From: an uncultured Candidatus Saccharibacteria bacterium
GTDB lineage: Bacteria > Patescibacteriota > Minisyncoccia > Phycocordibacterales > Phycocordibacteraceae
Direction: 5' to 3'
Length of the DNA: 64,000 bases
NCBI GenBank assembly: GCA_964446735.1
Contig: CAYUQB010000001.1
Coordinates: 444,460 to 508,459 of the forward strand
Both the position numbers and the translations under genes were made by a program. Below, piece after piece: positions 14,345-47,830 of the stretch (position 1 is the first letter of the stretch; the number at the start of each line of letters is the position of its first letter). The notes beneath the pieces are model-generated. The model was given only the letters and a program-made list of their open reading frames with translations. It ran no database searches and had not been told where the DNA came from.

Positions 14345-15619
14345 TTATTGTCCCAAGAGCTCCAATTCCTCTTTTACTACCTGCGCATCGCTCCACGGCT
14401 CCTTCTTACCGCCCGCCTGCATGATGTAGGGGTCCGTGCCTTTTCCGGTAATGAGTACTGCGTCGCCTGAGTGCGCACGAGCAAGTGCTTCTCGAATGGC
14501 TTCACGCCGATTCATGATGATTGTGGGGGTACGCTTCATGCCGCCCGCCATTGCTGCGAGAATAGCGGACGGGTCCTCATCGTACGGATCCTCGTCGGTG
14601 AGTATCACTTCGTCGCAATAGTCATCGGCAATACGCCCCATCTCCGGACGCTTCCAGGTATCGCGCCCGCCTCCTGTATTTCCGAGCACGCAGATTTTAC
14701 GACGAGATTCATATGCTTCATAGAGCGCAATGAGGGAGTCAGGTGTATGCGCATAGTCCACAATCGCGAGGAAGTCTTGTCCGACCTCAATGCGCTCGGC
14801 ACGCCCCGGAATGCGCGAAAGGGAGGCAAGTGAGCGTTGTATCGTTTGTGGCTTTACCCCCAGAAATTCTCCAGTGCGAATTGCAGCCAGTGCATTCCTG
14901 ATACTGAAGTCTCCGGGTTGCGGTAGGGTGTAGCGCGTCTGATTGTAGGTAAATGACACACCATCAGGAGAAGCAGTGTGGTCGTGCGCGTTGTTGAGTG
15001 AAAAAGGGAGCGACTGTTCGACAGGAAGCGCAAGAAAACGTTTTCCGTATCCGCTATCGGTGTTCGCAATTATAGCTCGCGGTCGTTTGGGAGAGTTGAG
15101 GAGTGCCTGTCCAATGCGGAACTTCGCTGCGAAGTACTTTTCCATGCCACCGTGACTTTCAAGGTGCTCTTTCTCGAGGTTAGTGAAGATGAGCGCGTCC
15201 AGATCAAGGAACAGGTGTCGATATTGCAGGGCCGCTTCGCTCGTGATTTCTATGACCGCGTGCGTCGCTCCCTTCGTTACCGCTTCTCGCAAGAACTTTT
15301 GAATAAAACCGCGTCCCGGCAGTGTCATTTTGAATAGGTTAGGACGCGACTCATTGCCGATTGAGAATCGAATGGTGCTTGATACCGCGACTGTGTGTCC
15401 TTGTGCCGCAAGGATAGCTGCGACCATTTCAGCTACGGACGATTTCCCCTTGGTACCGGTTACACCAACTACTACAAGACTTCGTGCAGGGAAGTGGTAG
15501 TAGAGTGCACTTCCAATAGTCCAGAGTAGGTGGTAGGGCAACAAGAGCGTGCGGTACACGCTGCGCGGGAAGAGTGATTGGAGAAATGACTTGAATGCAC
15601 CCATGCTACCGAGTGGCAC
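14345..15619 (-). CDS. murE: Mur ligase, most likely UDP-N-acetylmuramoyl-L-alanyl-D-glutamate--2,6-diaminopimelate ligase
   Basis: VGVTGTKGKSS P-loop; IVDYAHTPDSL; C-terminal TDEDPYDEDP (compare DNPRSEDP) and GKGTDPY. Confidence 0.6.
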   Translation of the reverse strand: MPLGSMGAFKSFLQSLFPRSVYRTLLLPYHLLWTIGSALYYHFPARSLVVVGVTGTKGKSSVAEMVAAILAAQGHTVAVSSTIRFSIGNESRPNLFKMTLPGRGFIQKFLREAVTKGATHAVIEITSEAALQYRHLFLDLDALIFTNLEKEHLESHGGMEKYFAAKFRIGQALLNSPKRPRAIIANTDSGYGKRFLALPVEQSLPFSLNNAHDHTASPDGVSFTYNQTRYTLPQPGDFSIRNALAAIRTGEFLGVKPQTIQRSLASLSRIPGRAERIEVGQDFLAIVDYAHTPDSLIALYEAYESRRKICVLGNTGGGRDTWKRPEMGRIADDYCDEVILTDEDPYDEDPSAILAAMAGGMKRTPTIIMNRREAIREALARAHSGDAVLITGKGTDPYIMQAGGKKEPWSDAQVVKEELELLGQ

Positions 15620-21081: not shown

Positions 21082-21831
21082 ATGAAGGGAATAATCACGG
21101 CAGGAGGAAGCGGCACACGGTTGTATCCACTCACGGCCGCGACGAATAAGCATTTACTGTCGCTCTATGACAAGCCAGTCATTTATTATGCCGTTGATAA
21201 ACTGGTCAATGCGGGAATTGACCAGATAATGATCGTAACCAACCCGCAGCACATCGAGGATTTTGTGAAGCTGTTTGGTTCGGGTAAAGATTTCATTTCG
21301 AAGAAAACAGGCAAACAGATTCAAATTGTCTACACCGTCCAAAACGAACCGAACGGTATCGGACACACACTTTCAGTCGCGCGTGACTATATAGGAAATG
21401 ACTCGTGCCTTCTCTATCTAGGCGACAATGTCTTTGAGGACGATATCGAACCGCATATACGGAATTTCAAGAGCGGAGCTAAAATATTTCTGAAACAGGT
21501 TCCCGATCCAGAGCGATTCGGTATAGCCGAATTAGATAAACGAGGGAGAGTCATCAGCATTGTTGAGAAGCCCAAAAAACCGAAATCGTCGTACGCGGTT
21601 ACTGGTCTCTATATGTACGACAACTCTATTGTTGAGAAATCCCGCCATCAAAAACGCTCTGCACGCGGTGAATTTGAAATCACGGCGCTCAATAATCTCT
21701 ACATCAAAGAGGGGAGAATGCGAGCCGCTATCCTGGAGAAGGAATGGTTTGATATCGGGACCTTTGACAGTTTGCTTGATGCTTCTTTATATATGCGCAA
21801 CAAAAGGAACGGTAAATTGAACCCTCTATGA
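21082..21831 (+). CDS. Sugar-phosphate nucleotidyltransferase (glucose-1-phosphate thymidylyltransferase RmlA-like)
   Basis: MKGIITAGGSGTRLYPLTAATNKHLLSLYDKPVIYY is the RmlA N-terminal signature. Confidence 0.8.
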   Translation: MKGIITAGGSGTRLYPLTAATNKHLLSLYDKPVIYYAVDKLVNAGIDQIMIVTNPQHIEDFVKLFGSGKDFISKKTGKQIQIVYTVQNEPNGIGHTLSVARDYIGNDSCLLYLGDNVFEDDIEPHIRNFKSGAKIFLKQVPDPERFGIAELDKRGRVISIVEKPKKPKSSYAVTGLYMYDNSIVEKSRHQKRSARGEFEITALNNLYIKEGRMRAAILEKEWFDIGTFDSLLDASLYMRNKRNGKLNPL

Positions 21832-22796: not shown

Positions 22797-22802
22797 GAGA
22801 TT

Positions 22803-25205
22803 ATGGCGACAAAAAAACAAAAACGAGCATATGTAATCGGCGCTGGCATGAGCGGGCTTTCAACTGCGCTCCGTCTTGCAGAGCTTGGAGTACAAACGAC
22901 CGTTATAGAAAAAGAAAAATATGTGGGCGGTATGGCCGGCAGTTTTTCGTGGGGCGAGTTTAAACATCTTGATTATGGACCCCACATCTATCATTCACCC
23001 GATGAGCAACAAGTTGCTCGATGGGAAAAGGAATTCGGCGATCTCTTTTTTAAGAGTGAGCCGTGGGGAAAAAATGTAAAAGGAGAGAACTTTGATCAAT
23101 ATTTTGATTATCCGCTTTCGTATGCCTCACTCAAGAACTTTCCTAAGGAATTGCGTGAGCAGATTCTCGATGAACTTGCTCGGGTAGATATCACCCGGCG
23201 AGCGAAAGCAACAAATTATTCAGAATATGTACGCGAGCTCGTCGGGCCTACTCTTACGAAGATATTCTTTACTGATTACCCACAAAAACTGTGGGGCGTT
23301 TCGGTTGAAGAAATGACCGCGAATTGGGCTCCGAAGCGCGTGACACTTCGCACAAAACAGGAACATGCTCATGCCGGCCAGTGGTGTGCAGTGGGTAAGG
23401 AGGGGTCGGGGGCGATTCTCGAGCGAATGGCAGAGCGCTTTAAAAAAGCCGGCGGCACTTTGCTACTAGGGAGTGCAGTCGCTCGTATTGTGCACTCTCG
23501 TGGTGTGGTAAAGAAACTCATATTACAGAACGGCAAGTCTATTTCCCTTGCTCCCGAAGACGTGGTTGTCTCAACCATGCCCATACATATCCTTGCTGAA
23601 TATCTCGGTATTAAAAATAATCTCAAATATCGGGGAGCGAAACTCGTGTTTGCGGCTCTCAATACTCCAGTTGCGATACCTGATAAGTTTAAGTATTTGT
23701 ACTACGACGCTCCAGACATCATCTTCCATCGCGTTAGCGAACAAAAGAAATTCTGTGCAAACGGGTTTCCGAAGAACAAGACAACTTTGTCGTGTGAGAT
23801 TTCGTATATGCAGGGAGACGCGCGAGACAAAATGGATGAGAAAAAAATCATGGAGAAAGCGGCAGAAGACCTCATAAAAGTTGGACTTGCGAAGGAAGGA
23901 CAAATCTACGATCTCAAAATGGTGTCCCTGCCTTTCATGTACCCCCTCATGGTAAAGGGAAGTGAGAAGGAGCTTGCAGAGGTGCGTAGTGCGCTTTCGG
24001 CATATACTCAGCTTTATTTCATCGGTACAGGGGGCAATTTCCACTACGCTGACCTGCAGATCTTGAACGTGCAGGGAATTGATCTTGCAGAACGGCTTGC
24101 AAGCGCAGAGGCAGGGGAGAGCGAGAAAGAACTCGTGAAGCAGGATTACACACACGAATTCAATAAGAAAGTTAAGTTCGGCTCTTTCGAAGTATCAGAT
24201 GACGCGCCTGCTTTTATTATTGCAGAGATAGGTCACAACCATAATGGCAGTTTGAAGCTCGCATATGAGCTTATTGATAAAGCAAAAGAAGTTGGCTGCG
24301 CTGCGGCGAAATTCCAGACATACAGCGCAGATCGTGTTTCAAAAGCAGTGAAAGGCAACCGGTATGCGGAGGAACTGGTAGATCAAGAGGAATCTATTTA
24401 TGATACGTACACTCGTCTACGGCTTGATAAAGAAGCGCATAAGAAAATATTTGCTTATGCGAAAAAAAAGGGAATAGACGTTTTCTCCACGCCGTCTGAT
24501 ATCGAGAGTGTCGAACTGCTCGAATCTCTCGGCTGTCCCTATTACAAAATTGCCTCAATGGATCTCGTGAACCTTCCGCTTATTCGTAGGGTGGCTAGTA
24601 CCGGAAAGCCACTCATCATGTCGACTGGCATGTCCACGCTCGGTCAGATTGAAGACGCGGTAAACGCCGTACGAGAGACGGGTAATCGGAACTTGGTGCT
24701 GCTCCATTGCGTATCGGCATACCCTGCTTCTTCTCAGGAGGTACACATGAGAGTCATGGATACGCTTCGACAGGCATTTGGCGTGCCTGTCGGCTTCTCA
24801 GATCACACTATAGGACTCACCGCGTCTACGGTTGCGCTTGCGCAAGGCGCATGCTCAATAGAGCGGCACTTCTCTCTCGATCGTTTTATGGAAGGACCTG
24901 ACCATATTTTTTCTTCTGACGTCGAAGAAATGAGAGAGCTGGTACGTTTGAGCCATCTTATTCCACTTATCAGAGGACGGGGCGAGAAGGTCATTCTTCC
25001 GAGCGAGACAGAAACGGCTAACCGTTTTAAAAAGTGCTTATATGCAAGAAAGGATATCCGTCGCGGACAAAAGATAACCGCTGCCCACCTCATACTCAAA
25101 GGCCCTGGTGGCGGCATATTACCTAAATACGAAGATATAGTGATTGGGAAAATCGCACGTCGAGCCATTAAACGTGATCACCCTATTCGTTGGGAAGATA
25201 TATAA
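22803..25205 (+). CDS. Fusion protein: N-terminal FAD-dependent UDP-galactopyranose-mutase-like domain (about aa 1-440) plus C-terminal NeuB-type N-acylneuraminate/nonulosonate synthase with SAF domain (about aa 455-800)
   Basis: N-terminus: YVIGAGMSGLSTALRLAELGVQTTVIEKEKYVGGMAGSF and FTDYPQKLWGVSVEEM (compare Glf YTEKQWG). C-terminus: IIAEIGHNHNGSLKLAYELIDKAKEVGCAAAKFQTY, a TIM-barrel NeuB fold, and the SAF tail KGPGGGILPKYEDIVIGKIARRAI. Confidence 0.75.
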   Translation: MATKKQKRAYVIGAGMSGLSTALRLAELGVQTTVIEKEKYVGGMAGSFSWGEFKHLDYGPHIYHSPDEQQVARWEKEFGDLFFKSEPWGKNVKGENFDQYFDYPLSYASLKNFPKELREQILDELARVDITRRAKATNYSEYVRELVGPTLTKIFFTDYPQKLWGVSVEEMTANWAPKRVTLRTKQEHAHAGQWCAVGKEGSGAILERMAERFKKAGGTLLLGSAVARIVHSRGVVKKLILQNGKSISLAPEDVVVSTMPIHILAEYLGIKNNLKYRGAKLVFAALNTPVAIPDKFKYLYYDAPDIIFHRVSEQKKFCANGFPKNKTTLSCEISYMQGDARDKMDEKKIMEKAAEDLIKVGLAKEGQIYDLKMVSLPFMYPLMVKGSEKELAEVRSALSAYTQLYFIGTGGNFHYADLQILNVQGIDLAERLASAEAGESEKELVKQDYTHEFNKKVKFGSFEVSDDAPAFIIAEIGHNHNGSLKLAYELIDKAKEVGCAAAKFQTYSADRVSKAVKGNRYAEELVDQEESIYDTYTRLRLDKEAHKKIFAYAKKKGIDVFSTPSDIESVELLESLGCPYYKIASMDLVNLPLIRRVASTGKPLIMSTGMSTLGQIEDAVNAVRETGNRNLVLLHCVSAYPASSQEVHMRVMDTLRQAFGVPVGFSDHTIGLTASTVALAQGACSIERHFSLDRFMEGPDHIFSSDVEEMRELVRLSHLIPLIRGRGEKVILPSETETANRFKKCLYARKDIRRGQKITAAHLILKGPGGGILPKYEDIVIGKIARRAIKRDHPIRWEDI

Positions 25206-25220
25206 CTTTTACTGCACATC

Positions 25221-26081
25221 ATGAGCAGTAACCCTCAAAAAATAATAGTAACGGGAGGTTCAGGCTTCATTGGTTCAAATCTTGTTGAGGAACTTCGTAC
25301 GCAGGGGTACGACGTAGAAAGTATTACATCAGCTGAGAATGACATCCGCGATACCGAGTTACTCAAAGAAAGGTTTGCTGGCGCACACATAGTATTCCAC
25401 TTGGCAGGTCTCTCACGAGTAAAGGACGCACTTGACCGTCCACTGGAGTCGCATGAAGTAAATGTAACCGGCACGCTCTCTGTACTTGAGGCGGCAAGGC
25501 ACGCGGGAGTAAAACGGGTTGTGTTCGCGTCCTCAAGCGCCGTTTACGGTCCACAAAACGACCTGCCTTTTCGAGAAAATATGAGTGTACGGCCCGAACA
25601 TCCGTACGCGCTCCAAAAATATATCGGTGAGATGTATTGCAAACTCTATAGTGAATTGTTTGGGCTAGAGACAGTATGTCTGCGTTATTGCAATGTTTAT
25701 GGCAGCGAGGATGCATTTAAGAATCGTGGGACCACGGTTATTTCGCATTTTCTCACCTTACAAAAGGAGGGGAACCCGCTCACTATAGCTGGAAACGGAG
25801 AACAAAAGCTTGATTTTGTACACGTGCGCGACGTCACTCGCGCAAATGTGCTTGCCGCGAAAAGTGAGCTTGTTGGGAAGGGAGAAATTATCAATATAGG
25901 TTCTGGAGAAAACACCTCAATACTTGAGCTCGCGGAGCTCATCGGTGGGCATGTTGAATTTATGGAAGTGCAGACAGACCAGCAGAGCACCTTAGCAGAT
26001 ATAACCCTTGCGAAGAAGCTGCTTGACTGGGAGCCGCAAATTTCCCTCGAAGAGGGAATAGCTGAACTCAAAATTGTTTGA
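25221..26081 (+). CDS. NAD-dependent epimerase/dehydratase (UDP-sugar 4-epimerase-like SDR)
   Basis: IIVTGGSGFIGSNLVEEL; YALQKYIGE (YxxxK). Confidence 0.8.
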   Translation: MSSNPQKIIVTGGSGFIGSNLVEELRTQGYDVESITSAENDIRDTELLKERFAGAHIVFHLAGLSRVKDALDRPLESHEVNVTGTLSVLEAARHAGVKRVVFASSSAVYGPQNDLPFRENMSVRPEHPYALQKYIGEMYCKLYSELFGLETVCLRYCNVYGSEDAFKNRGTTVISHFLTLQKEGNPLTIAGNGEQKLDFVHVRDVTRANVLAAKSELVGKGEIINIGSGENTSILELAELIGGHVEFMEVQTDQQSTLADITLAKKLLDWEPQISLEEGIAELKIV

Positions 26082-34470: not shown

Positions 34471-34545
34471 GGATCATATCCGAAACCACCACACGCTCCA
34501 TACGGGGCGTGTTTTGGTTTGACAGAGAAATAAGGGCGTACTATC

Positions 34546-34782
34546 ATGCGTTTATCCAAGGCCTGCGGGCCTTTTTTATTAGCGCTTACCTTGGCACTCA
34601 TGAAGGCATTTGCGACCTATCTTAAGAACGTCCGCGCCGAAATGGCACACGTGGTATGGCCCGACCGCAAACAGGCGGTTCTCCACACGGTGCTCATCAT
34701 TCTTATTTCCGCGTTGCTTGCGATAGTGATTGCCGTGCTCGACTACGCATTCACGGGAGTTGTTTCTCGCATCATCGGCTAA
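34546..34782 (+). CDS. secE: Preprotein translocase subunit SecE
   Basis: Sequence similarity (KNVRAEMAHVVWPDRKQAVLHTVLIILISALLAIVIAVLDY, single TM) and canonical position before nusG. Confidence 0.75.
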   Translation: MRLSKACGPFLLALTLALMKAFATYLKNVRAEMAHVVWPDRKQAVLHTVLIILISALLAIVIAVLDYAFTGVVSRIIG

Positions 34783-34792
34783 TCCTTTGCAT

Positions 34793-35362
34793 ATGGAAAT
34801 AAAATCCGTACCCCAATTCAACGAAGAGGCTGCCAATGCGGAACCACGTTGGTACAGCATCCATACCTACGCTGGATACGAGAACGCGGTCGAACGCAAT
34901 CTCAAGCAGCGTATTGAGTCACTCGGTATGGAGCACAAGATTTTTGAGGTAGTCGTTCCAACCGAAAAGAAGATTCGGGTGAAAGCCGGTAAGCGTATTG
35001 TCGAGGAAGAGAAGATCTATCCGGGGTATATTCTCGTGCGCATGATTGTGGACGAGGACTCCTGGTTTGTCGTACGCAATACACCGCGTGTCACTGGGTT
35101 TGTCGGAAGCGGCACCACCCCGGTTCCTATGGAAGAGAGCGAAGTCACTACGTTGATGAAACGTATGGGCGCCGAGGCCCCCAAACACCGTATTGACCTT
35201 ATGAAAGATGATCCGGTCGTTATTGCCGACGGACCCTTCAAGGACCTTGAAGGAAAGGTGGGCGAGATTGATGAGGAACGCGGCAAGGTGAAGGTGCTCG
35301 TCTCCATGTTTGGCCGCGAGACGCCGGTCGAGCTCGATTTCTTGCAGGTTCGCAAGCTCTAA
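34793..35362 (+). CDS. nusG: Transcription termination/antitermination factor NusG
   Basis: WYSIHTYAGYENAVERNL (NGN domain) plus C-terminal KOW (GPFKDLEGKVGEIDEERGKVKVLVSMFGRETPVELDF). Confidence 0.85.
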   Translation: MEIKSVPQFNEEAANAEPRWYSIHTYAGYENAVERNLKQRIESLGMEHKIFEVVVPTEKKIRVKAGKRIVEEEKIYPGYILVRMIVDEDSWFVVRNTPRVTGFVGSGTTPVPMEESEVTTLMKRMGAEAPKHRIDLMKDDPVVIADGPFKDLEGKVGEIDEERGKVKVLVSMFGRETPVELDFLQVRKL

Positions 35363-35384: not shown

Positions 35385-35807
35385 ATGGCAAAAGCAGTAA
35401 AGAAAATTAAGCTCCAGATTCCGGCGGGTAAAGCGACGCCGGCTCCTCCGGTGGGTACCGTCCTCGGTCCTGCGGGTGTGAACATTGGTGATTTCGTCAA
35501 TAAGTTCAATGAAGCAACCCGTGAACGCATGGGAGAGATCGTGCCGGTTGAGATGACGGTCTATGACGACCGCACCTTCTCGCTCGTCTACAAAGTGTCG
35601 CCCATGTCCCAGCTCATCTTGAAGGCTATTGGAGCAGATAAGGGTTCGGGCAAGACACCGTTTTCTAAAGTAGGAACACTCACGCGTGCGAAGGTTCGTG
35701 AAGTAGCCGAAAAGAAGATGCCTGATCTCTCAGCATCGTCAATCGAGGCTGCAGAGCGTACGGTTGAAGGTACGGCACGTTCCATGGGCGTTACCATCGA
35801 GAAATAA
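35385..35807 (+). CDS. rplK: 50S ribosomal protein L11
   Basis: [45 protein letters not shown]... Confidence 0.9.
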
Positions 35808-35865: not shown

Positions 35866-36609
35866 ATGGAGATAGAGAGCTTCAAAGTAGAAACCTTGCT
35901 TCCACCCAAGGATGATCTGCTCGCAAAAATACGAGCCTCTGCCCTCACTCTCAACGAGCATGATGTCGTTGCGATTTCCTCAAAGGTGGTGGCGATTGGA
36001 GAAGGAAGTGTTATTCCCATGGAAGGGGTGGTGCAGGACGAGTTGATTGCACAAGAATCAGATCAGTATTTAGAGCGTCGTGAGACACCGGGAGGGTTTG
36101 TCATGCACACGCTCAAGAATGGCACACTCATTCCAAATGCCGGTATTGATCCCTTCGCGGGGCATTATGTTCTGTGGCCAAGAGATCCGCAGAATAGTGC
36201 GGATGAACTGCTTGCTTGGTTCAAGACGGAGTATGGGATTGAACACTTATATCTGGTCATCACTGACTCACGGAGTGTGGTACTGCGTCGTGGCGTAGTT
36301 GGTATCGCAATCGCATGGGCAGGATTCGAACCAATCTACGACAACCGAATGCGTACCGATCTTCTCGGTAATCCAAGTAATGGGAGTCAGACCAATATTC
36401 CAGACGCCCTTGCCGCTGCGGCCGTGTACGTCATGGGCGAGGCCAATGAAGGCACGCCGCTCGTACGCATTCGTAATGCGCCGTACGTACAAAAGACACA
36501 GACCGGGCGCAAGAAAGAATTTAATACCTACACGTTCAGTATTGAGGAAGATATCTTTGCACCATTCCTTTCACGTGCACCGTGGAAGCAGGGTGCTACG
36601 GGCGGGTAA
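35866..36609 (+). CDS. CofE-family gamma-glutamyl ligase-like protein (F420-0:gamma-glutamyl ligase / FolC2-like), copy 1
   Basis: ...TLKNGTLIPNAGIDPF... (the NAGID motif of CofE-like proteins) and the overall CofE fold pattern. Converges on folA. Confidence 0.55.
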   Translation: MEIESFKVETLLPPKDDLLAKIRASALTLNEHDVVAISSKVVAIGEGSVIPMEGVVQDELIAQESDQYLERRETPGGFVMHTLKNGTLIPNAGIDPFAGHYVLWPRDPQNSADELLAWFKTEYGIEHLYLVITDSRSVVLRRGVVGIAIAWAGFEPIYDNRMRTDLLGNPSNGSQTNIPDALAAAAVYVMGEANEGTPLVRIRNAPYVQKTQTGRKKEFNTYTFSIEEDIFAPFLSRAPWKQGATGG

Positions 36610-37099
36610 GGGTAATCCAGCGATACGAAAGTTCCTCAAACGAACGGGTCTCGTCTGAAAGTACTTTGGTAAATTCCTGCTCGTATTCCGGGAAGAAAGC
36701 ATCCCCTTCTTTTTGGTCAGCAATGAGTGTCAGATAGAGCCGGTCAGTATAGGGAAGGGCAGCTTCGTATATTTGCGCGCCACCACCGATGAATATTTCG
36801 TCCGATCCCAGTGCCTGGGCCTGCTCGAGTGCCGCTTCAATCGACGTGGTCGCGATCATGCCTTCATAGGACCAGGTAGGATCGCGCGTCACCACGATAT
36901 TTGTGCGGTTTGGAAGTGGTGCGCCACGAATGGAAAGTATAGAGTCGAAGGTTTTCCTTCCAAAAATGAGTGGATGGTGCTCAGTGAGTTCTCGGAACCG
37001 TCTGAGGTCGTCTGGAATACGCCACAGAAGGTCATTTTCTTTTCCGAGCGCACGGTTCGTACCGATTGCAGCGATTGCAGATACCGGAACATGCTTCAT
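36596..37099 (-). CDS. folA: Dihydrofolate reductase
   Basis: VSAIAAIGTNRALGKENDLLWRIPDDLRRFRELT...IFGRKTF..IPGRTNIVVTR is the DHFR signature. Confidence 0.85.
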   Translation of the reverse strand: MKHVPVSAIAAIGTNRALGKENDLLWRIPDDLRRFRELTEHHPLIFGRKTFDSILSIRGAPLPNRTNIVVTRDPTWSYEGMIATTSIEAALEQAQALGSDEIFIGGGAQIYEAALPYTDRLYLTLIADQKEGDAFFPEYEQEFTKVLSDETRSFEELSYRWITLTRP

Positions 37100-37113
37100 G
37101 CCGTAAGCCTACC

Positions 37114-37815
37114 TTAGAACCCAGCATTTTTGAAAAGCGGGTAATACATATCCTCTTTTGCGGGCATGATGAGTTCACGATTCGGATGTCGGCTCGTGAA
37201 CGTGACTGGTGCGCCAGTGATAAGGACAAGCGGTTGCCGTTCGTTCCCCTCTCCCATAAGGATGCCAGCAGTAGCAGCAAGGCCGTCAGCAAGATTCGTA
37301 CGCGTCATACGAAGGGATCGACCGAATAAGTCTTTTTTCCCGGCGTATTCACGAAGTCCGGTGAAGCCGGCATATCCGAGCGCAGATCCTGTGACGCCAG
37401 CACGAAGAGGGAGTGGGCAGCTGTCCGTAATGAGGATCCCAAGTTTTTTTCGGCCGTACGCCTTCTTGAGTTTTTTGTGTAGCTCGGCTGCAGACGCGTA
37501 GCTGTCTTTTGGAAGGAGCACTAGTTTTTTATTTGCATTCGATTCATCTATGCCAGCGTTGGCCATGAGCATCCCATCTTTACGGGTGAGCCACACGTAT
37601 TTCGTTTTGAGTGCCGCATCGCTTTCTGATTGTATTCGCTCGTCCTTGGCGCGTTGGGTAGTAAGCGGAACGGTGCGGCCCTCCGCAAGAGCTACTACCT
37701 TTGATGCTATAGCGATGATGCTGTGCTCTGGGACTTCGGGAAGTGCCTGTGTAATGAAAGAAACGAGGTCGTCACCCTCGTGAAAAATGCCGGTATGTAT
37801 CGGGCGAGACTGCAT
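37114..37815 (-). CDS. CofE-family gamma-glutamyl ligase-like protein, copy 2
   Basis: ...WLTRKDGMLMANAGIDESNANKKLVLLP.. is the CofE-like motif. Start placed at MQSRPIHTGIFHEGDDLVSFI. Confidence 0.55.
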   Translation of the reverse strand: MQSRPIHTGIFHEGDDLVSFITQALPEVPEHSIIAIASKVVALAEGRTVPLTTQRAKDERIQSESDAALKTKYVWLTRKDGMLMANAGIDESNANKKLVLLPKDSYASAAELHKKLKKAYGRKKLGILITDSCPLPLRAGVTGSALGYAGFTGLREYAGKKDLFGRSLRMTRTNLADGLAATAGILMGEGNERQPLVLITGAPVTFTSRHPNRELIMPAKEDMYYPLFKNAGF

Positions 37816-37823
37816 GGTAGGGA

Positions 37824-38273
37824 CTATATCACCGGGTCTCCGCATGCATAGAGTGAGAGCGTCTGGTCCGGCAGCACCACTATGACGTAGTCCATGGGCT
37901 GATCCCATGGCTCTTTTGTAAGCGGGGTGGGTGAGAATTGGTGTTCATGACACACACCAATTCGAAGCCAGGCGCCAGGCACGTACGTAAGAAAGCGGTC
38001 ATACCATCCACCCCCTTGGCCATGGCGGGTGCCGAGAGCATCAAAGCGACGTCCAGGAATAAGAAGTGCGGTCGGGTCTCCCTGAGCAACCGCCAGAGTT
38101 GTTTGCGCTTCTTGTACTGGATCGAGTCCAGCTCGGGCCGGTATTTCGTAGGTAGGTATGCCCGTAGGAAGGGTAATCAGGTCAAGAATAGGGACCTCAG
38201 TGCGTAAGGGATGGTAGGTAATGACACAACGCCTGTCCAAAAGGAGCTTGTCAATGTCGGCGCGGGCGCCCAT
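37824..38273 (-). CDS. 5-formyltetrahydrofolate cyclo-ligase (MTHFS family)
   Basis: GTRHGQGGGWYDRFL (GxGGGYYDR motif). Start placed at MGARADIDKLL; the TTG at 38294 is an alternative. Confidence 0.7.
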   Translation of the reverse strand: MGARADIDKLLLDRRCVITYHPLRTEVPILDLITLPTGIPTYEIPARAGLDPVQEAQTTLAVAQGDPTALLIPGRRFDALGTRHGQGGGWYDRFLTYVPGAWLRIGVCHEHQFSPTPLTKEPWDQPMDYVIVVLPDQTLSLYACGDPVI

Positions 38274-38293
38274 GTGCCGTATACTACCAGGCA

Positions 38294-38971
38294 ATGTCCG
38301 GCACTTACGAGATCGAAATTAAGAGCCTCTTGGGGGAGGCGAGCGAGGCGGAACGAGTCCGTGAAGGCATGCGTGCACTCGATCCGAACGCAACCTGCCG
38401 TGCCTCCTACACCCAGATCAATCACTACTTTGAGAATGGCGACATCACTAAATTAGTCGAAGCACTTACGCCGCTCGTATCGTCTGCAACAGCAGACAAA
38501 ATGGGAACCATAGCTACGGAAGGACGTAGTCTTTCAATTCGTACTCGCTCTATGAATGGAGAAAGTCGTATCGTCATGAAGGCATCTATTGGAGACGACT
38601 CAAGTGCCAATGGAGTGGCGCGGCTTGAGATCGAGGAACCAGTTACGCTTGCATTAGACGCGCTCGACCAGCTGGTGCTTTCTTGTGGGTATACGTATCA
38701 GGCTAAGTGGTCACGAAGTCGGGAGGAGTATCAGGTTGGTGACGTCACGGTATGTCTTGATAAGAATGCGGGATACGGCTATCTGGCCGAATTTGAAAAA
38801 GTCGTTGAGAAACCCGACCAGGCACCGGAAGCTCGCGCCGCACTCGATGATTTGATGCGGCAACTCGGTGTCGTCGAGCTGCCGCAGGAGCGGCTCGAAC
38901 GCATGTTTGCGTATTACAACCAGCACTGGCCCGAGTACTATGGGACGGAAAAAGTATTCACCGTAGAATAG
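38294..38971 (+). CDS. CYTH-domain protein (class IV adenylyl cyclase / triphosphatase fold)
   Basis: N-terminal YEIEIKSLL (ExExK motif of CYTH) and acidic patches, about 225 aa. Confidence 0.45.
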   Translation: MSGTYEIEIKSLLGEASEAERVREGMRALDPNATCRASYTQINHYFENGDITKLVEALTPLVSSATADKMGTIATEGRSLSIRTRSMNGESRIVMKASIGDDSSANGVARLEIEEPVTLALDALDQLVLSCGYTYQAKWSRSREEYQVGDVTVCLDKNAGYGYLAEFEKVVEKPDQAPEARAALDDLMRQLGVVELPQERLERMFAYYNQHWPEYYGTEKVFTVE

Positions 38972-38975
38972 ACGT

Positions 38976-39545
38976 ATGTTTCTCTCTGACCTCGATATTA
39001 CGAAAGGGATCAAGTCGGGTGCGATTGTCATCCGCCCGTTCAACCCAAAGAACCTGCAGATGGCGAGCTACGACGTTACACTCGGCAATGAGTTCCAGGT
39101 GACCGATCGCCACAGCACCAGCGTTATCGATCCATATCATAAGGTGTACCCCAAGACCCGAACCATTAAAGTGAAGGATGGGGAGCCGTTTATTCTTCAT
39201 CCAGGAGAAAGCGTGCTCGGGAAGCAAAAGGAATTTATTGGGGTAGATCATGAGCACCTCATTCTCCTTTCGGGAAAGTCATCCCTCGCTCGTGCCGGTC
39301 TCGTGGTCCACAACACTGCCATGCTGTTTAATCCCGGGCATCATTTCTATCCCACGTTCGAGCTCGTGAATACGAATAACGTTCCTATCATTCTTCGTCC
39401 CGGCATGGAGATCGCACAGCTTCTGTTTGCGCGCCTTACCAGCAAGACTTCCAAGGGATACGACGGGAATGGACGGTTTGATAAGAAGAATTCAAATCAT
39501 TTCCCCGGCACAAAGCGTCCTGCCACAAAGAAGCGGCGCACCTAA
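38976..39545 (+). CDS. dcd: dCTP deaminase (dUTPase superfamily)
   Basis: IRPFNPKNLQMASYDVTLGNEFQV... plus the dUTPase-like beta fold. Confidence 0.8.
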   Translation: MFLSDLDITKGIKSGAIVIRPFNPKNLQMASYDVTLGNEFQVTDRHSTSVIDPYHKVYPKTRTIKVKDGEPFILHPGESVLGKQKEFIGVDHEHLILLSGKSSLARAGLVVHNTAMLFNPGHHFYPTFELVNTNNVPIILRPGMEIAQLLFARLTSKTSKGYDGNGRFDKKNSNHFPGTKRPATKKRRT

Positions 39546-39550
39546 ACACT

Positions 39551-40528
39551 ATGAACAATCGTCACCCCGAGTACCAATACCTGGACCTGATGCAAGAGAT
39601 CCTTGATACAGGGGAGAAGCAGGAGGATTCCATTGGGGTGAATACGTACAGCCTCTTTGGTCGACAGATTCGGTTCGACCTTTCGGACGGTCTTCCACTC
39701 CTTACGACCAAGAAGGTGTATTGGAACGGGGTTCTCCACGAGTTGTACTGGTTCATCTCAGGACAGACAAATATCAAGTACCTCGTCGATAACAACGTTC
39801 ATATTTGGGACGACTATCCGTACAAGATCTACTGCGAGAAAGTTGCTAAAGGTCTCTTGCCTGCGATGGAGAAGGCTGAATTCATTGCGGCAATTGCTCG
39901 GGACGATGAGTTCGCACGTCTCCATGGCGATCTTACTCATTGCTACGGCGAGGCATGGAGACGGTGGCCCGCACGGGACGGTCGTACGGTTGACCAGCTT
40001 GCGTGGGCAATAGCGGAGCTTGCTCGAGATCCGGATGCTCATAACACAGTTGTGAATTCGTGGAATCCCGAGTACCTATACGGCATGGCACAGCCGGAGG
40101 AGGCACTTCGGTTCCCGATCTGCCACAACATGTTCCAGTTCAATATTAAGAATGGGAAGGTGTGTCTCCAGCTCTACCAGCGCTCTGCGGACATCTTTCT
40201 TGGTGTTCCGTTCAACATTGCGAGCTATGCACTCCTGACCGCAATCGTTGCACGCGTGCTGGGCAGGGAACCGGGAGAATTCGTCCATACGTTCGGTGAT
40301 GTACATCTGTATGAGAACCACATCGAGCCTGCGCGAGAACAGCTCTCTCGTGAGCCGATGCCCTTTCCAACGGTTACGCTTTCCGGATTCGATTCTATTG
40401 ATGACTTCCGTCCCGAGCATGTTGAGCTCACGCACTATGAAGCGCACCCGCCTATTAAAGCCGAGCTTTCCGTCACCGGTGGAGTGAACGTCGCAGGGTA
40501 CGATTCGCGTACGAAGAAAGCGGTATAA
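39551..40528 (+). CDS. thyA: Thymidylate synthase (ThyA)
   Basis: PICHNMFQFNIKNGKVCLQLYQRSADIFLGVPFNIASYALLT, including the catalytic Cys. Confidence 0.9.
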   Translation: MNNRHPEYQYLDLMQEILDTGEKQEDSIGVNTYSLFGRQIRFDLSDGLPLLTTKKVYWNGVLHELYWFISGQTNIKYLVDNNVHIWDDYPYKIYCEKVAKGLLPAMEKAEFIAAIARDDEFARLHGDLTHCYGEAWRRWPARDGRTVDQLAWAIAELARDPDAHNTVVNSWNPEYLYGMAQPEEALRFPICHNMFQFNIKNGKVCLQLYQRSADIFLGVPFNIASYALLTAIVARVLGREPGEFVHTFGDVHLYENHIEPAREQLSREPMPFPTVTLSGFDSIDDFRPEHVELTHYEAHPPIKAELSVTGGVNVAGYDSRTKKAV

Positions 40529-40590
40529 CTATTTGTATGATCTAACGCGCTTCATGGTCTCGATCCATTACTCAGATTTATTCTCGACCC

Positions 40591-41889
40591 ATGAACACGT
40601 ACCCACACATTCACGCAGAAGATCCTGAACTTAACGCCTTTATTGACGGAGAAGAGCGCCGTCAGCACGAGGGGCTCGAACTTATACCGAGCGAGAACTA
40701 TGTCTCGCAGGCAGTGCGTGAAGCGATGTCCTCGTGCCTTACCAATAAGTATTCCGAAGGGTATCCCGGTAAACGCTACTACGGCGGTCAGGAATTTACT
40801 GATCAAATAGAAACGCTTGCGATTGAGCGTGCCAAGACGCTTTTCCGGGCTGACCACGCAAACGTACAGCCCCTGGGGGGCGCAAATGCAAACATTGCAG
40901 CGTACTTTGCGTGGGTTGAGCCGGGTGACACTATCCTCGGAATGGATCTCGCGCATGGGGGACACCTCACGCATGGGTCTCCGGTCACGTATATGGCGCG
41001 GCTCTTTAACTTCGTCCGCTACGGTATGAAGGATCCTGATACCGGCGAGATCGACTATGACGAAATGCGAGAAACGGCAAAGCGGGTCCGTCCGAAGATT
41101 GTACTCGCTGGCTTTTCGGGGTATCCGCGTGAGCTCGACTGGGACCGCATTGCAGATATCGCTCACGAAGTTGATGCGGTCGCGATGGCCGACGTCGCAC
41201 ATATCGCAGGACTCATCGCGGGCGGTGTTGCGGAGAATCCCCTCGACCATGGCTTCCAGGTCATGTCGACCACGACACATAAGACGCTGCGTGGCCCACG
41301 TGGTGGGATGATTCTTTCTCGTGGAAAAGTATCAAGTCCCCTCAAGAAACCCGAGAAGACCATCGAGAATCTGCCGACGTTAATTGATCGAAGCGTCTTC
41401 CCAGGATTTCAGGGTGGCCCCCACATGCACCAGATCGCGGCGAAGGCCGTCATGCTTAACGAAGCAGCACGTCCGTCGTTTAAGGAGTACGCGACGCAGA
41501 TTGTGAAAAACGCGAAGGCGATGGCCGAAGTGTTCCGCGATGGCGGCATCCGCCTCATCACCGGCGGTACGGACAACCACCTCATTCTTGCCGACGTGTA
41601 TGGATCGCTCGGCATTACCGGTGGGGAAGCAGAGACCCTGCTTGATCGTGCTGGTATCACGCTCAATAAGAATTCCATTGCAAACGATACTCGGACACCG
41701 TTCGATCCTTCGGGCATACGGTTTGGAACACCGGCAATGACCACTCGTGGGTTTGTTGAGGAGGAATCGAGAGAAGTTGCCATGCTTATGCTCGAAGTGC
41801 TCCAGAAACGCGATGATGCGACCGTGGAGGCAGTGGGGAGACGTATTACTGAGCTCGCTGAGTCACATCCGATTCCCGACTCCTTCTAA
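40591..41889 (+). CDS. glyA: Serine hydroxymethyltransferase
   Basis: LELIPSENYVS; TTTHKTLRGPRGG (PLP-lysine motif). Confidence 0.9.
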   Translation: MNTYPHIHAEDPELNAFIDGEERRQHEGLELIPSENYVSQAVREAMSSCLTNKYSEGYPGKRYYGGQEFTDQIETLAIERAKTLFRADHANVQPLGGANANIAAYFAWVEPGDTILGMDLAHGGHLTHGSPVTYMARLFNFVRYGMKDPDTGEIDYDEMRETAKRVRPKIVLAGFSGYPRELDWDRIADIAHEVDAVAMADVAHIAGLIAGGVAENPLDHGFQVMSTTTHKTLRGPRGGMILSRGKVSSPLKKPEKTIENLPTLIDRSVFPGFQGGPHMHQIAAKAVMLNEAARPSFKEYATQIVKNAKAMAEVFRDGGIRLITGGTDNHLILADVYGSLGITGGEAETLLDRAGITLNKNSIANDTRTPFDPSGIRFGTPAMTTRGFVEEESREVAMLMLEVLQKRDDATVEAVGRRITELAESHPIPDSF

Positions 41890-41923: not shown

Positions 41924-42307
41924 GTGTACCCTTCAGGTACACGAGTTCTTGGCGAGGGGACCATGACGCCATGCGAACAAGAAATCATCGGTATTCTTAC
42001 GGTTGCGCTTACGCGAAACCTGGAAGTTGAGGTCAAAATCCTCGCTCGGCTTGCACGGGAAGCGGGGTGTTCGGATCAGAAGCGGGTTCGCTTCTGGACC
42101 CAAGAACGGATCACCATGGCGTTTCTCGCCATCGGAGATCTCAGAAAGGGGCATCGCTACCAACTCTTGATCGATAATTGGTTCCTCCCGGCGCTACGAC
42201 ACCTGGTCGCATGGAAGTCTGACTACCGCGGACCCTGCCACGAGACCTGTCCCGTGCGAGCGTTTGTAGCGTTCGCGAGACAGCACGGCATATCGGTCGA
42301 CCTTTGA
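41924..42307 (+). CDS. Hypothetical protein
   Basis: 127 aa ORF with no recognised motif, followed by a terminator. Confidence 0.3.
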   Translation: MYPSGTRVLGEGTMTPCEQEIIGILTVALTRNLEVEVKILARLAREAGCSDQKRVRFWTQERITMAFLAIGDLRKGHRYQLLIDNWFLPALRHLVAWKSDYRGPCHETCPVRAFVAFARQHGISVDL

Positions 42308-42309
42308 AC

Positions 42310-42344
42310 GAACGCGCACTCCCCGGCGCGTTCGGTTTTTTCTG
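42310..42344 (+). terminator. Rho-independent terminator (gaacgcgc-actcccc-ggcgcgttc plus ggttttttctg)
   Basis: Stem-loop plus T-tract, seen in the sequence. Confidence 0.5.
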
Positions 42345-44416: not shown

Positions 44417-47400
44417 ATGGCCGATATTGATACCGACGCGGTGGAGAAAAGCGAGGCAGTGCTTCGCGAAGAGGAAGTACTCCGATTCTGGAAGGAGAAT
44501 CGTATTTTTGAGAAGTCACTCGAACGAGGGAGTGATAAGCATCCGTTCATTTTTTATGAAGGCCCTCCGACCGCAAACGGTCGACCCGGAGTTCACCATA
44601 TGGAGTCTCGGTCGTTTAAAGATGCTATTCCTCGATACAAAACGATGCGGGGGTTCAATGTCCCTCGTCGAGGTGGCTGGGATACTCACGGACTTCCCGT
44701 TGAGCTCGAAGTCGAGAAGCAACTTGGCTTTAGCGGAAAACAGGACATAGAAACGTACGGCATCGCCGAGTTTAATAAAAAGTGTCGAGAGAGTGTATTT
44801 TCATACATCGACGAATGGAAAAAGTTTTCCGATCGCATGGGCTATTGGGTCGATCAGGACGAAGCGTACTTTACCTTCGATGCTTCGTACATGGAGTCGC
44901 TCTGGAGCATTTTCAAGAAAGTGAGCGACGATGGGCGTCTCTATAAAGACTATCGAGTGGTGCCGTGGTGCGTATCGTGTGGAACCGCACTGTCTTCTCA
45001 CGAACTCGCGCAGGGATACGAAGAAGTGAAAGACCTCTCGCTTACGGTGAAGTTCGAACTCGTAAACGAGCCTGGTACGTTCGTACTTGCATGGACCACG
45101 ACTCCGTGGACGCTTCCGGGAAATGTTGCACTTGCCGTGGGTGAGAAGATTGCGTACGGCCTCTATCAGAAGGATGATCAGAAGGTCATCGTTGCGGATG
45201 CACTTGCTCCAAAGGTGCTTGGAGAGGGATGGGTGCGAACTGAAGATCGGCCGACAGCGGGACTCATCGGTCAGGAGTATCGACCGCTCTACCCATTTGC
45301 CCGAGAGGTAGCTCCTGAAAGTGAGCAACCCAAATTCGATGCTGCGTATCGAATATATACCGCAGACTTTGTGAATACTGAAGACGGTACCGGCATTGTG
45401 CATACGGCTGTTATGTACGGTCAGGACGACTTCGAGCTTGGTTCCAAGGTCGGCCTACCCAAAGTTCATCTCGTCGCCCCTGATGGGAGGTTTGTGAGCG
45501 GCACCGGCTTTTTGGAAGGTGCATCGGTCATCGATTCCGAGACGAACGTTGCGGTACTGAAAGACCTACAGGAGAAGGGACTTTTCTTTGCGAAAGAGAA
45601 TTACGCGCACGAGTATCCACACTGCTGGCGAAGTAAGAATCGACTGGTCTACTATGCGCGTGATTCCTGGTATATCCGCATGACGGAGCTCCGTGACTAC
45701 CTTATTGACGAGAACAAGACGGTGAACTGGGAGCCAAGCTATATTCGCGATGGCCGCATGGGTGAGTGGCTCGCGAATGTGCGTGATTGGGCAATCTCAC
45801 GAGAACGATACTGGGGCACGCCGCTCCCGGTATGGCAGAGTGCAGACGGGAGCGAACAGGTGGTTGTCGGTTCTATCGAAGAATTACGGTCTCGTAGGAA
45901 AAGAAGCGGGAATACCTATTTCCTCATGCGTCATGCCGAAGCTGAGCAGAATGTAAAAAGAATCGTTAACAGTGGTGATTTGAATGCGTATGGAATCACC
46001 GACCTCGGCAAGCAGCAGGCGCTTGAGTCGGCACAGCAATTCAAACAAGAAAACGTCTCGATTATCTATGCATCGCCGTTTCGTCGTACACGTGAGACAG
46101 CCGAAATAATTGCCGATGAGCTGGGCATTCCACGTTCTGAAATAGTTTACGATGTTCGGCTTCGAGAGCTCGACTTCGGCGATCTCAATGAATGTCCGTA
46201 CGATGATTTCACCGCATACCGGAAGGAGCACCTGCATGCCTACTCAGATTCATTACCAAGTGGCGAGAGCTGGCTTGATGCACGTCGACGCTTCGGTCAC
46301 TTCATTTACGAAATGGAGCAGATGCATCAAGGGAAGAATATTCTAATGGTTACGCACGGTGTTGCGTTCGAATCCCTGCTTATGATTACAGAAGGAAAGA
46401 ATCATAGGGAGTCCCAGGAGTTTCTCCAATCATATGCGCCGCCCCAGAAGGGTTCATGGATGAAACTTGATTTCGTTCCGCTTCCACACAACGATGACTA
46501 CGAACTCGACCTCCATCGTCCCTATATAGATGACGTGGTACTTCTCTCCGATTCGGGAACTGAACTACGACGGACACCGGAAGTTATGGATGTCTGGTTC
46601 GATTCAGGTGCGATGCCATTCGCACAGGATCACTATCCTTTCGAGAATAAGGAGTGGATTGATACGAAAGGCTACCCAGCTGATTTCATATCGGAAGCAA
46701 TCGACCAGACTCGAGGATGGTTCTACACGCTTCTTGCGGTAGGAGTACTGATGGGGAAGGGTGCGGCGTATAAAAATGTTATCTGTCTTGGGCATCTCTT
46801 GGACGAGGCTGGTCAAAAGATGAGTAAGTCAAAGGGGAACATCATTGAGCCCATGAAGGCCATAGACCGGTACGGGGCCGACACCCTTCGGTTCTGGATG
46901 TACTACGTCAATCAGCCAGGCGATAGCAAGAATTTTGATGAGAAAACGGTCAAGGAAGCAGCACGTGTGCTGTCCTGGTTCGAACATAGTGTGAAGTTCT
47001 ATCAACTCTTCGGTGGCGCAGAAGGAAAGGCCGAAGAGCAGATCATCGATACGTGGATGCGTACTCGAGTTTCCGAGACCATCGGTGAGGTCACCACTAC
47101 GCTCGACGCCTATGATCTTTACACTGCAACACGGCGAATCAGCACACTCATTGAAGATCTCTCGCAGTGGTATGTCAGACGCGTACGTGATCGTGTGCGT
47201 GATGGTGACGTTGCCGCCAGTACAGCGTTACGTGACACCCTCCAAGCCATTGCTGTTCTTCTTGCTCCGTTTGCCCCTTTTATTGCTGAATGGGGCTACC
47301 AAGCAGTGCGTGATGCCGAAGATCCCGAAAGCGTACATCTTGCCGATTGGTATGAGGCGGGCACCGTTGACACTACGCTTATCGAACACATGGCGACGAC

Positions 47401-47830
47401 ACGGATGCTCGCGTCAGAAGCACTCCGCGCTCGTCAGGGTGCTGGCGTGAAGGTCCGCCAGCCGCTTTCAACACTTTCTATACCAGGAAAGCTTCCTCAG
47501 GAATTTGCGCTCCTTCTGGCAGAAGAAGTGAATGTAAAAGAAGTCATCATGGAGCAAGAGGCACTTTCGCTTGCAACCGAACTCACTCCTGACCTTATCC
47601 GCGAAGGTGATGCGCGTGAGTTTCTGCGTGCACTTGCAGATGCACGAAAAGAAACCGGACTATCTCCACACGACCGCATTGCACTGACGGTCTCTCCAGA
47701 AGGTGAGGGCGTACTTGCTGGCTTAAGTATTCCGGCGGTGACGTCCATTGCGTACGGCTATGCGGATGATCATGCGGTAGAGCTTTCGTTTGGAAAGCTT
47801 GGGTTCTCCTTCCTGCTCAATGCGTCATAA
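44417..47830 (+). CDS. ileS: Isoleucyl-tRNA synthetase (type 2-like) carrying an inserted histidine-phosphatase (phosphoglycerate-mutase-like) domain of about 180 aa
   Basis: PPTANGRPGVHH (HIGH-type), CP1 editing domain (WTTTPWTLPGN), KMSKSKGN, and the C-terminal anticodon-binding region. Between ...VVVGSIEELRSRRK and YAPPQKGSWMKLDF...DLHRPYIDD there is a complete RHG-type phosphatase: FLMRHAEAEQN...SPFRRTRETAEI...LMVTHGVAFESL. Confidence 0.85.
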   Translation: MADIDTDAVEKSEAVLREEEVLRFWKENRIFEKSLERGSDKHPFIFYEGPPTANGRPGVHHMESRSFKDAIPRYKTMRGFNVPRRGGWDTHGLPVELEVEKQLGFSGKQDIETYGIAEFNKKCRESVFSYIDEWKKFSDRMGYWVDQDEAYFTFDASYMESLWSIFKKVSDDGRLYKDYRVVPWCVSCGTALSSHELAQGYEEVKDLSLTVKFELVNEPGTFVLAWTTTPWTLPGNVALAVGEKIAYGLYQKDDQKVIVADALAPKVLGEGWVRTEDRPTAGLIGQEYRPLYPFAREVAPESEQPKFDAAYRIYTADFVNTEDGTGIVHTAVMYGQDDFELGSKVGLPKVHLVAPDGRFVSGTGFLEGASVIDSETNVAVLKDLQEKGLFFAKENYAHEYPHCWRSKNRLVYYARDSWYIRMTELRDYLIDENKTVNWEPSYIRDGRMGEWLANVRDWAISRERYWGTPLPVWQSADGSEQVVVGSIEELRSRRKRSGNTYFLMRHAEAEQNVKRIVNSGDLNAYGITDLGKQQALESAQQFKQENVSIIYASPFRRTRETAEIIADELGIPRSEIVYDVRLRELDFGDLNECPYDDFTAYRKEHLHAYSDSLPSGESWLDARRRFGHFIYEMEQMHQGKNILMVTHGVAFESLLMITEGKNHRESQEFLQSYAPPQKGSWMKLDFVPLPHNDDYELDLHRPYIDDVVLLSDSGTELRRTPEVMDVWFDSGAMPFAQDHYPFENKEWIDTKGYPADFISEAIDQTRGWFYTLLAVGVLMGKGAAYKNVICLGHLLDEAGQKMSKSKGNIIEPMKAIDRYGADTLRFWMYYVNQPGDSKNFDEKTVKEAARVLSWFEHSVKFYQLFGGAEGKAEEQIIDTWMRTRVSETIGEVTTTLDAYDLYTATRRISTLIEDLSQWYVRRVRDRVRDGDVAASTALRDTLQAIAVLLAPFAPFIAEWGYQAVRDAEDPESVHLADWYEAGTVDTTLIEHMATTRMLASEALRARQGAGVKVRQPLSTLSIPGKLPQEFALLLAEEVNVKEVIMEQEALSLATELTPDLIREGDAREFLRALADARKETGLSPHDRIALTVSPEGEGVLAGLSIPAVTSIAYGYADDHAVELSFGKLGFSFLLNAS

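Follow-up and report, generated by a model that had tools for sequence, protein, structure and literature searches.

Two CofE-family paralogs beside folA in a Patescibacteria genome as probable FolC2-type folate gamma-glutamyl ligases

Introduction

The stretch of DNA analysed here (64 kb, hereafter the window) is part of a 516,752-bp contig, CAYUQB010000001.1, from an uncultured Candidatus Saccharibacteria bacterium of the Patescibacteriota, and contains two genes of the CofE family that flank the dihydrofolate reductase gene folA. The two genes, CofE-like-1 (P1) and CofE-like-2 (P2), probably encode FolC2-type (COG1478) folate:L-glutamate gamma-ligases, largely interchangeable and placed in a folate salvage and thymidylate-cycle module. 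Their products have the fold and the catalytic motifs of CofE, fall in one clade with a FolC2-type protein of Chlamydiales and are encoded in a neighbourhood that is conserved in many Patescibacteria. From these features we infer folate as the substrate, gamma-glutamyl ligase chemistry as the reaction and a shared role for the two copies.

At least one of folA, glyA and folD is present in 90.8% of 4,581 Patescibacteria genomes, and no known folate transporter was detected in the Candidate Phyla Radiation genomes examined (PMC11974145). The text of that 2025 paper on Patescibacteria folate does not mention folC, folylpolyglutamate, glutamylation or F420, and its supplements hold no folC or cofE entries. 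The displacement of FolC by FolC2-type proteins has been known since 2007, and the locus is probably a further example of this known solution. New here are two defined Patescibacteria subfamilies, a conserved slot beside folA and two candidate partners, a Vut_1 transporter and an ATP-grasp ligase, which were seen in relatives and not in the window.

Results

Family, fold and conserved residues

Both proteins exceed the gathering cut-off (25) of the Pfam family PF01996 (F420_ligase), P1 with 116.5 and P2 with 150 bits. They align with each other at 38% identity (E = 4e-40) and, judged by sequence, are true paralogs. The AlphaFold models have pLDDT values of 85.8 (P1) and 84.6 (P2) and match the CofE of Archaeoglobus fulgidus (Af-CofE; PDB 7ULD and 2PHN) with E = 2e-16 and TM 0.73 for P1, and E = 3e-20 and TM 0.87 for P2. 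The structure search with the two models returned no fold other than CofE below E = 0.1.

The Asp of the NAGID motif, the Asp-Thr/Ser of the TDx motif (TDS) and the Glu of the MGE motif are found in 100% of 116 P1, 118 P2 and 17 archaeal or F420-type sequences. The acidic residues of these motifs are presumably the metal ligands of Af-CofE. The SK..EG motif is also common to P1, P2 and archaeal CofE. The invariance of the catalytic motifs argues that both families are under selection as active enzymes. The genome is of the Paceibacteria type, and all named P1 and P2 homologs come from Patescibacteria, Paceibacterota, Parcubacteria or Kaiserbacteria.

Relation to the FolC2 and F420 types

The best NCBIfam model for both proteins is TIGR04132 (FolC2), matched over the full length, including the C-terminal motif, with 185.2 bits by P1 and 202.1 bits by P2 (cut-off 350). 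The same model ranks first for P3, a third CofE-like subfamily of Patescibacteria, and for every bacterial non-F420 member tested; elsewhere it gives 357 bits for a Chlamydiales protein, 377 for an alphaproteobacterial one and 290-295 for those of Holosporales and Puniceispirillum. The F420 models are matched below their cut-offs, TIGR01916 (180.65) with 105.2 bits by P1 and 158.7 by P2, and NF009809 (274) with 100.5 and 150 bits. The Chlamydiales protein that passes the TIGR04132 cut-off (P0355) is 37.5% identical to P1 and 39.6% to P2, and the identity of the two to archaeal CofE is 30-33%.

Two sequence features separate the types in the representative alignment. A segment of about 16 residues after SK..EGR (Af-CofE residues ~57-72) is missing in P1, P2, P3, Holosporales, Puniceispirillum and Elusimicrobiales, whereas it is kept in the CofE of Archaeoglobus, Methanocella, Hadarchaeota, Chloroflexota and Steroidobacter. 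At the C-terminus the former group has a common E-[ED]-D-x-[YF]-x-P-[LF] motif; the F420-type C-terminus is R-x-x-E-x-D-L-F in Methanocella, Hadarchaeota, Chloroflexota and Steroidobacter, and the aligned Archaeoglobus sequence ends before it. A bacterial non-F420 clade with P1, P2, the Chlamydiales protein and the Holosporales member is recovered in 98 of 100 neighbour-joining (NJ) bootstraps.

The Holosporales member of this clade is itself placed among folate genes: at L050:9965-12000 its gene and the start of a fused HPPK-DHPS gene (folK-folP) overlap, an arrangement like that of the FolC2 gene with the folate genes in the Chlamydia folate operon (PMC4161248). Its product scores 290 bits on TIGR04132 (below the cut-off of 350) and is named an F420 ligase by NCBI. 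The Chlamydia FolC2 protein CT611 complements an E. coli folC mutant, and the clustering of folC2 with the 5-formyltetrahydrofolate cyclo-ligase (5-FCL) gene has already been noted (PMC1971073). The comparison of models, motifs and clades supports a closer resemblance of P1 and P2 to the FolC2 type than to the F420 type. Most of the homologs go under the name 'coenzyme F420-0:L-glutamate ligase' in NCBI or JGI records, and a minority are entered as 'dihydrofolate synthase / folylpolyglutamate synthase' or as 'putative folate metabolism gamma-glutamate ligase'. The F420-ligase naming of the Patescibacteria homologs is inconsistent and probably misleading.

Gene neighbourhood in related genomes

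Loci with P1 were collected with the P1 alignment, one genome per species (n = 31), and loci with P2 by a metagenome scan with the P2 alignment (n = 80, L086-L165). Each locus covers about 20 kb, and the counts below refer to these loci rather than to whole genomes. Of 27 informative loci, 26 have the ribosomal protein gene rplK upstream of P1, and 26 have folA convergent with P1 within 4 kb, usually within 600 bp. This recurrence of rplK-P1 converging on folA shows that the arrangement is not a chance juxtaposition. The thymidylate synthase gene thyA is present in 25, and the serine hydroxymethyltransferase gene glyA in 24, of the 31 P1 loci.

P2 is often found in the same rplK slot, in the order nusG, rplK, an optional Vut_1 gene, P2, an optional ATP-grasp gene and then, on the opposite strand, folA and thyA. 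P2 has folA at most 4 kb downstream in 15 of 35 informative loci. A 5-FCL-P2-folA operon is found in the window and in the loci L080 and L005. The slot beside folA and thyA is conserved over a wide diversity of Patescibacteria, and the subfamily that fills it varies.

In the relatives, CofE-like genes of all three subfamilies (P1, P2 and P3) can be directly preceded, often with an overlap, by a transporter gene of the Vut_1/YhhQ family. Of 62 informative P2 loci, 28 have the transporter gene in this position and in the orientation of P2; it also stands beside P1 or P3 in L002/L012, L010, L014 and L044, and is present in L007 as well. The proteins score 128-132 bits on TIGR00697, the queuosine precursor transporter model (cut-off 51). 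The Vut_1 protein is a candidate folate importer of Patescibacteria, or a mere syntenic neighbour.

An ATP-grasp ligase gene lies beside P2-type genes at L005:6939-7937 and in 25 of the 80 loci L086-L165. A Pfam match suggested Ddl for this neighbour, but the Ddl score is only 42-46 bits, against 181 bits for cyanophycin synthetase and 144 bits for GshB. By analogy with CofF and MptN, the ligase could modify the glutamate tail. The genes for Vut_1 and for the ATP-grasp ligase are both absent from the window. In Kaiserbacteria loci (L081) a 185-amino-acid open reading frame (ORF) precedes P2; it was discarded as a further partner, since nothing in the window matches it except a tRNA-Leu gene, and the gene call is probably spurious.

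Distribution of the two copies

The subfamilies are well separated in the NJ tree, with bootstraps of 100 for P1, 99 for P2 (a few Elusimicrobiales sequences fall inside it) and 100 for P3. The order in which the three branch is weakly supported, P1 and P3 being joined to the exclusion of P2 in only 36% of bootstraps. By this tree P1 and P2 are old, distinct subfamilies and not the product of a recent duplication. P1 is specific to Paceibacteria and P2 is widespread in Patescibacteria, and both are FolC2-like.

No second CofE-like gene is present within about 10 kb in 28 of the 31 P1 loci and in all 80 P2 loci. In L005 a run of 5-FCL, ATP-grasp, P2 and folA converges directly on rplK, and there is no P1 at the locus; the identity to the window is 82% for nusG and 68% for glyA, values similar to those of P1-only relatives. 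Both P1 and P2 are found only in the window and in its closest relative L080 (P1 79% and P2 67% identical), the two cases in which this state was verified; the contig of the P1-type protein P0004 has no second CofE-like gene. The genome is a rare case in which both ligases are kept. As the subfamilies replace each other at one locus in related genomes, P1 and P2 are most likely isofunctional or largely overlapping. Each ligase alone probably suffices, since P1-only and P2-only relatives use the same slot beside folA.

A second, independent kind of two-paralog state is seen in three P1 genomes with a P3 gene between rplK and P1 (L010:8612-9268, L011:1345-2070 and L014:8481-9260, all on the minus strand). 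In L010 and L014 this P3 gene lies downstream of Vut_1. The P3 proteins keep the Ser-Asn pair described below and are 37-41% identical to P1 and P2 of the window.

Divergent features of P1

The P1 family has a four-residue deletion after the metal-binding Asp, which takes out the Ser-Asn pair (S111/N112 in Af-CofE). The pair is present in 100% of P2 and in all 17 archaeal or F420-type sequences, and is kept in representatives of every other subfamily examined. In addition, a hairpin SGGSQTN replaces GRxLxxT in P1, at the positions that align with residues 185-193 of Af-CofE. Af-CofE has a long domain-swapped hairpin that touches the cofactor, and its active site is located at the interface of the dimer (PMC10861534). 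The alignment suggests that the remodelled stretch of P1 corresponds to this hairpin, for which PMC10861534 gives no residue numbers; Ser111 and Asn112 are not named in that paper or its supplements. The segment that contacts the chromophore (G153-C155 in Af-CofE) differs among Af-CofE, P1 and P2.

The P1 of the window carries two further substitutions, R48S and C49V, at positions that are Arg in 98% and Cys in 97% of the family. The Arg (R49 in Af-CofE) is also found in 97% of P2 and 76% of archaeal sequences, and Arg-Cys is retained in P0002 and P0003, the closest relatives of the window P1. In this genome P1 may have an altered specificity or be in mild decay.

Search for folC, pterin-branch and F420 genes

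The search for folC and F420 genes covered the window and about 2 Mb of related loci. About 50 ORFs of the window were scanned against Pfam or NCBIfam models, and none of them is FolC, FolP, FolK, FolB, FolE or a protein of F420 biosynthesis. A tblastn search with E. coli FolC gave no match in 2.03 Mb of related Patescibacteria loci. A 423-amino-acid Mur-ligase protein at 14345..15619 on the minus strand was considered as FolC and rejected: it is MurE, with 297.5 bits on TIGR01085 (above 257.3), and reaches only 51 bits on the folC model (cut-off 162.65). This MurE lacks the usual N-terminal Mur ligase domain, which makes its domain architecture superficially FolC-like.

Layout of the locus

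The genes between 34.7 and 42.3 kb form a plus-strand run (nusG-rplK-P1), a minus-strand run (5-FCL-P2-folA) and a second plus-strand run (CYTH-dcd-thyA-glyA) followed by a short ORF and a terminator-like hairpin (Table 1). The gene list of the original prediction for 35866-41889 proved correct, including the two CofE-family paralogs on either side of folA and the convergence of P1 with folA, with two adjustments. The start of P2 is set at the MQSRP of position 37815, according to the family alignment and the database entry P0121, where the mechanically called ORF reaches 37908. The 5-FCL is a short form: the PF01812 match covers the C-terminal half only and TIGR02727 is matched with 61.9 bits (cut-off 84.9), and the GGGWYDR motif is kept. 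Its orthologs have about 146-152 amino acids and also match PF01812.

Table 1. Features of the folate and thymidylate locus (positions in the window)
Feature	Position	Strand	Remarks
Promoter-like site ahead of nusG	34519-34547		Scan score 11/12
nusG	34730..35362	+	Heads the conserved nusG-rplK-(CofE-like) run; tblastn synteny; PF02357 at orthologous loci
rplK (ribosomal protein L11)	35385..35807	+	58-bp gap to P1; PF03946/PF00298 in L001
P1 (CofE-like-1)	35866..36609	+	247 amino acids; PF01996
folA (dihydrofolate reductase)	36596..37099	-	PF00186 153.8 bits; last gene of the 5-FCL/P2/folA operon
P2 (CofE-like-2)	37114..37815	-	233 amino acids; PF01996
5-FCL (short 5-formyltetrahydrofolate cyclo-ligase)	37824..38294	-	156 amino acids; PF01812 45.5 bits; first gene of the minus-strand operon
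CYTH-domain protein	38294..38971	+	PF01928 36.2 bits; first of the CYTH-dcd-thyA-glyA run
dcd (dCTP deaminase)	38976..39545	+	TIGR02274 139.1 bits (cut-off 92.8)
thyA (thymidylate synthase)	39551..40528	+	TIGR03284 346 bits
glyA (serine hydroxymethyltransferase)	40591..41889	+	NF000586 546.7 bits
127-amino-acid ORF after glyA	41924-42307	+	No Pfam or NCBIfam match
Terminator-like hairpin	42309..42334	+	9-bp stem with 7 GC pairs, then a T-run; strongest of the region; closes the plus-strand run

The convergent P1 and folA genes overlap by 14 bp at their 3' ends. P2 begins 8 nt past the stop codon of 5-FCL and ends 14 nt ahead of the start of folA, and these short gaps argue that 5-FCL, P2 and folA form one operon. 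Between rplK and P1 the promoter and terminator scan shows a weak 5-bp hairpin and nothing that clearly bounds an operon. An Rfam scan of the window returned nine tRNAs only, with no tetrahydrofolate (THF) or other riboswitch.

The start of the CYTH gene abuts that of the divergent 5-FCL gene. The CYTH-dcd-thyA-glyA block recurs in L010, L014, L019 and L055, and in L002 the CYTH gene follows ndk; these recurrent neighbours suggest that the CYTH protein is linked to nucleotide metabolism. In L005 and L080, too, glyA and argS are separated by unannotated ORFs of 114-215 amino acids.

Other features of the window

The window opens with dnaA and dnaN. An isoleucyl-tRNA synthetase of 1137 amino acids (44417-47830, plus strand) has a histidine-phosphatase domain (PF00300) inserted in the middle of the synthetase, as indicated by the precomputed Pfam hits of the L080 ortholog and by the LMRHAE motif in the window sequence. 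A fusion protein of 800 amino acids (22803-25205, plus strand) joins an N-terminal half resembling FAD amine oxidase and UDP-galactopyranose mutase to NeuB and a SAF domain, and its gene lies inside a nucleotide-sugar cluster (~20200-26081).

Discussion

The probable role of P1 and P2 as FolC2-type folate ligases can be placed in a simple scheme, drawn by analogy with CofE and FolC2. A dimeric, nucleotide- and metal-dependent ligase would activate the terminal gamma-carboxylate of imported folate and add glutamates to it. The glutamylation would trap the cofactor in the cell and allow its better use by ThyA, GlyA and related enzymes. The 5-FCL would convert folinate into usable methenyl-THF, and dihydrofolate reductase would reduce folate and dihydrofolate (DHF). 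ThyA would consume methylene-THF and yield DHF for recycling by the folA product, and GlyA would regenerate methylene-THF. P2 would be co-transcribed with 5-FCL and folA, and P1 occupies the conserved slot after nusG-rplK, facing folA.

Several points weigh against this interpretation. The TIGR04132 scores of P1 and P2 lie below the cut-off for strict FolC2 equivalogs, and by these scores the two proteins are relatives of the curated FolC2 family that stand outside its membership. The FolC2-like activity of the Patescibacteria proteins is a prediction from sequence and precedent. Having lost the Ser-Asn pair and with a remodelled hairpin, P1 may differ in function from P2, and the P1 of the window has in addition replaced a conserved Arg. 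Conserved gene order in compact Patescibacteria genomes can partly reflect shared ancestry and not function. Genomes that appear to hold a single copy could carry a second one outside the locus of about 20 kb, and canonical folC or F420 genes are possible outside the window.

The presence of two copies may also be read as a division of labour in which both proteins are needed. They might act on different acceptors (pteroate or dihydropteroate against THF, or different one-carbon forms), produce different chain lengths, use different nucleotides or form a heterodimer with differing interface sites. The deep, separately conserved subfamilies would fit this alternative, as would the changes that are unique to P1 (the Ser-Asn deletion and the rebuilt hairpin), the divergent segment at Af-CofE G153-C155, the position of the CofE active site at the dimer interface (PMC10861534), the P3 genes kept beside P1 in three further genomes and the grouping of P1 with the Holosporales-type, folKP-adjacent clade in 88% of bootstraps. 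It is nevertheless rather unlikely: nearly all P1 loci and every P2 locus lack a second CofE-like gene nearby, L005 has P2 without P1 at the locus, a folate salvager has no need of the dihydrofolate synthase step, and the window scan revealed no pterin-branch genes. One suggestion of the original prediction, a first glutamate added by one copy and chain extension by the other, is disfavoured by the relatives with P1 only or P2 only in the same slot. Other parts of that prediction are supported, namely the CofE family, the FolC2-type resemblance, the folate and thymidylate neighbourhood (conserved, as seen above, well beyond this genome) and the precedent in Chlamydia, which is real (PMC1971073, PMC4161248).

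Other readings move the substrate away from folate. If the folate genes were mere neighbours, the ligases could act on another imported cofactor or metabolite, for instance the cargo of the Vut_1/YhhQ transporter, whose gene lies directly upstream of so many P2 genes and also beside P1 and P3, whose protein passes TIGR00697 and which belongs to no known folate transporter family. This would be a surprising outcome, as we know of no glutamylated 7-deazapurine and the window itself has no Vut_1 gene; moreover, P2 is tightly enclosed in the 5-FCL-P2-folA operon, a Holosporales member of the clade overlaps folKP, and for the Chlamydia member the role in folate metabolism has been validated (PMC1971073). 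That one or both proteins are genuine F420-0:gamma-glutamyl ligases is the least credible of the alternatives and very improbable. PF01996 membership, the P2 score near the TIGR01916 cut-off and the names of many homologs would agree with it, but both proteins score below the CofE cut-offs and higher on TIGR04132, lack the ~16-residue segment and the R-x-x-E-x-D-L-F terminus, and fall in a separate clade. No F420 biosynthesis genes are present in the window, and a 2021 review of F420 distribution nowhere mentions Patescibacteria.

A combined scheme, which is rather unlikely and would go beyond the preferred reading of two largely interchangeable folate ligases, joins two of the elements above. 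P1 would be functionally shifted, either by using another acceptor or another nucleotide or by pairing with P2 or P3 in a heterodimer, and a Vut_1 importer, a FolC2-like trap and an ATP-grasp tail modifier would together form a hitherto unrecognised folate capture module of Patescibacteria.

If the CofE-like proteins are the folylpolyglutamate synthases of this group, a gap in Patescibacteria folate metabolism would be filled. Many 'coenzyme F420-0:L-glutamate ligase' entries would then be misleading, hinting at an F420 metabolism where there is probably none, and there would be concrete candidates for folate uptake, the Vut_1 transporter, and for modification of the tail, the ATP-grasp ligase. 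The genome with paired P1 and P2 offers a natural test of a difference in specificity between diverged FolC2-like enzymes.

Comparison with known systems

The closest known system is the FolC2 of Chlamydia trachomatis (CT611; COG1478; TIGR04132), which belongs to the same superfamily, has the same fold and falls in the same 98% clade as P1 and P2. In both cases the gene adjoins folate genes, here folA. In Chlamydia the enzyme is part of a de novo pathway (folB, folKP), in which it also has to add the first glutamate, whereas the Patescibacteria locus holds salvage and recycling genes only. Chlamydia has one FolC2 and the window has two paralogs. The Chlamydiales protein P0355 keeps the Ser-Asn pair (GIDESN), which P1 lacks.

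The CofE of archaea (Archaeoglobus fulgidus; PDB 2PHN, 7ULD) has the fold of P1 and P2 and shares with them the NAGID, TD[ST], MGE and SK..EG motifs. Its dimeric, nucleotide-dependent acyl-phosphate ligase chemistry is, by extension, the one expected for P1 and P2. The proteins differ in their overall sequence (30-33% identity), in the ~16-residue segment, in the C-terminal motif and in the G153-C155 segment. Archaeal CofE serves F420, whereas the genomic context of P1 and P2 is one of folate.

FolC, the Mur-ligase type of folylpolyglutamate/dihydrofolate synthase (TIGR01499), carries out the reaction that is proposed here, the gamma-glutamylation of folate, with an unrelated fold and from an unrelated family. 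FolC uses ATP, whereas CofE uses GTP.

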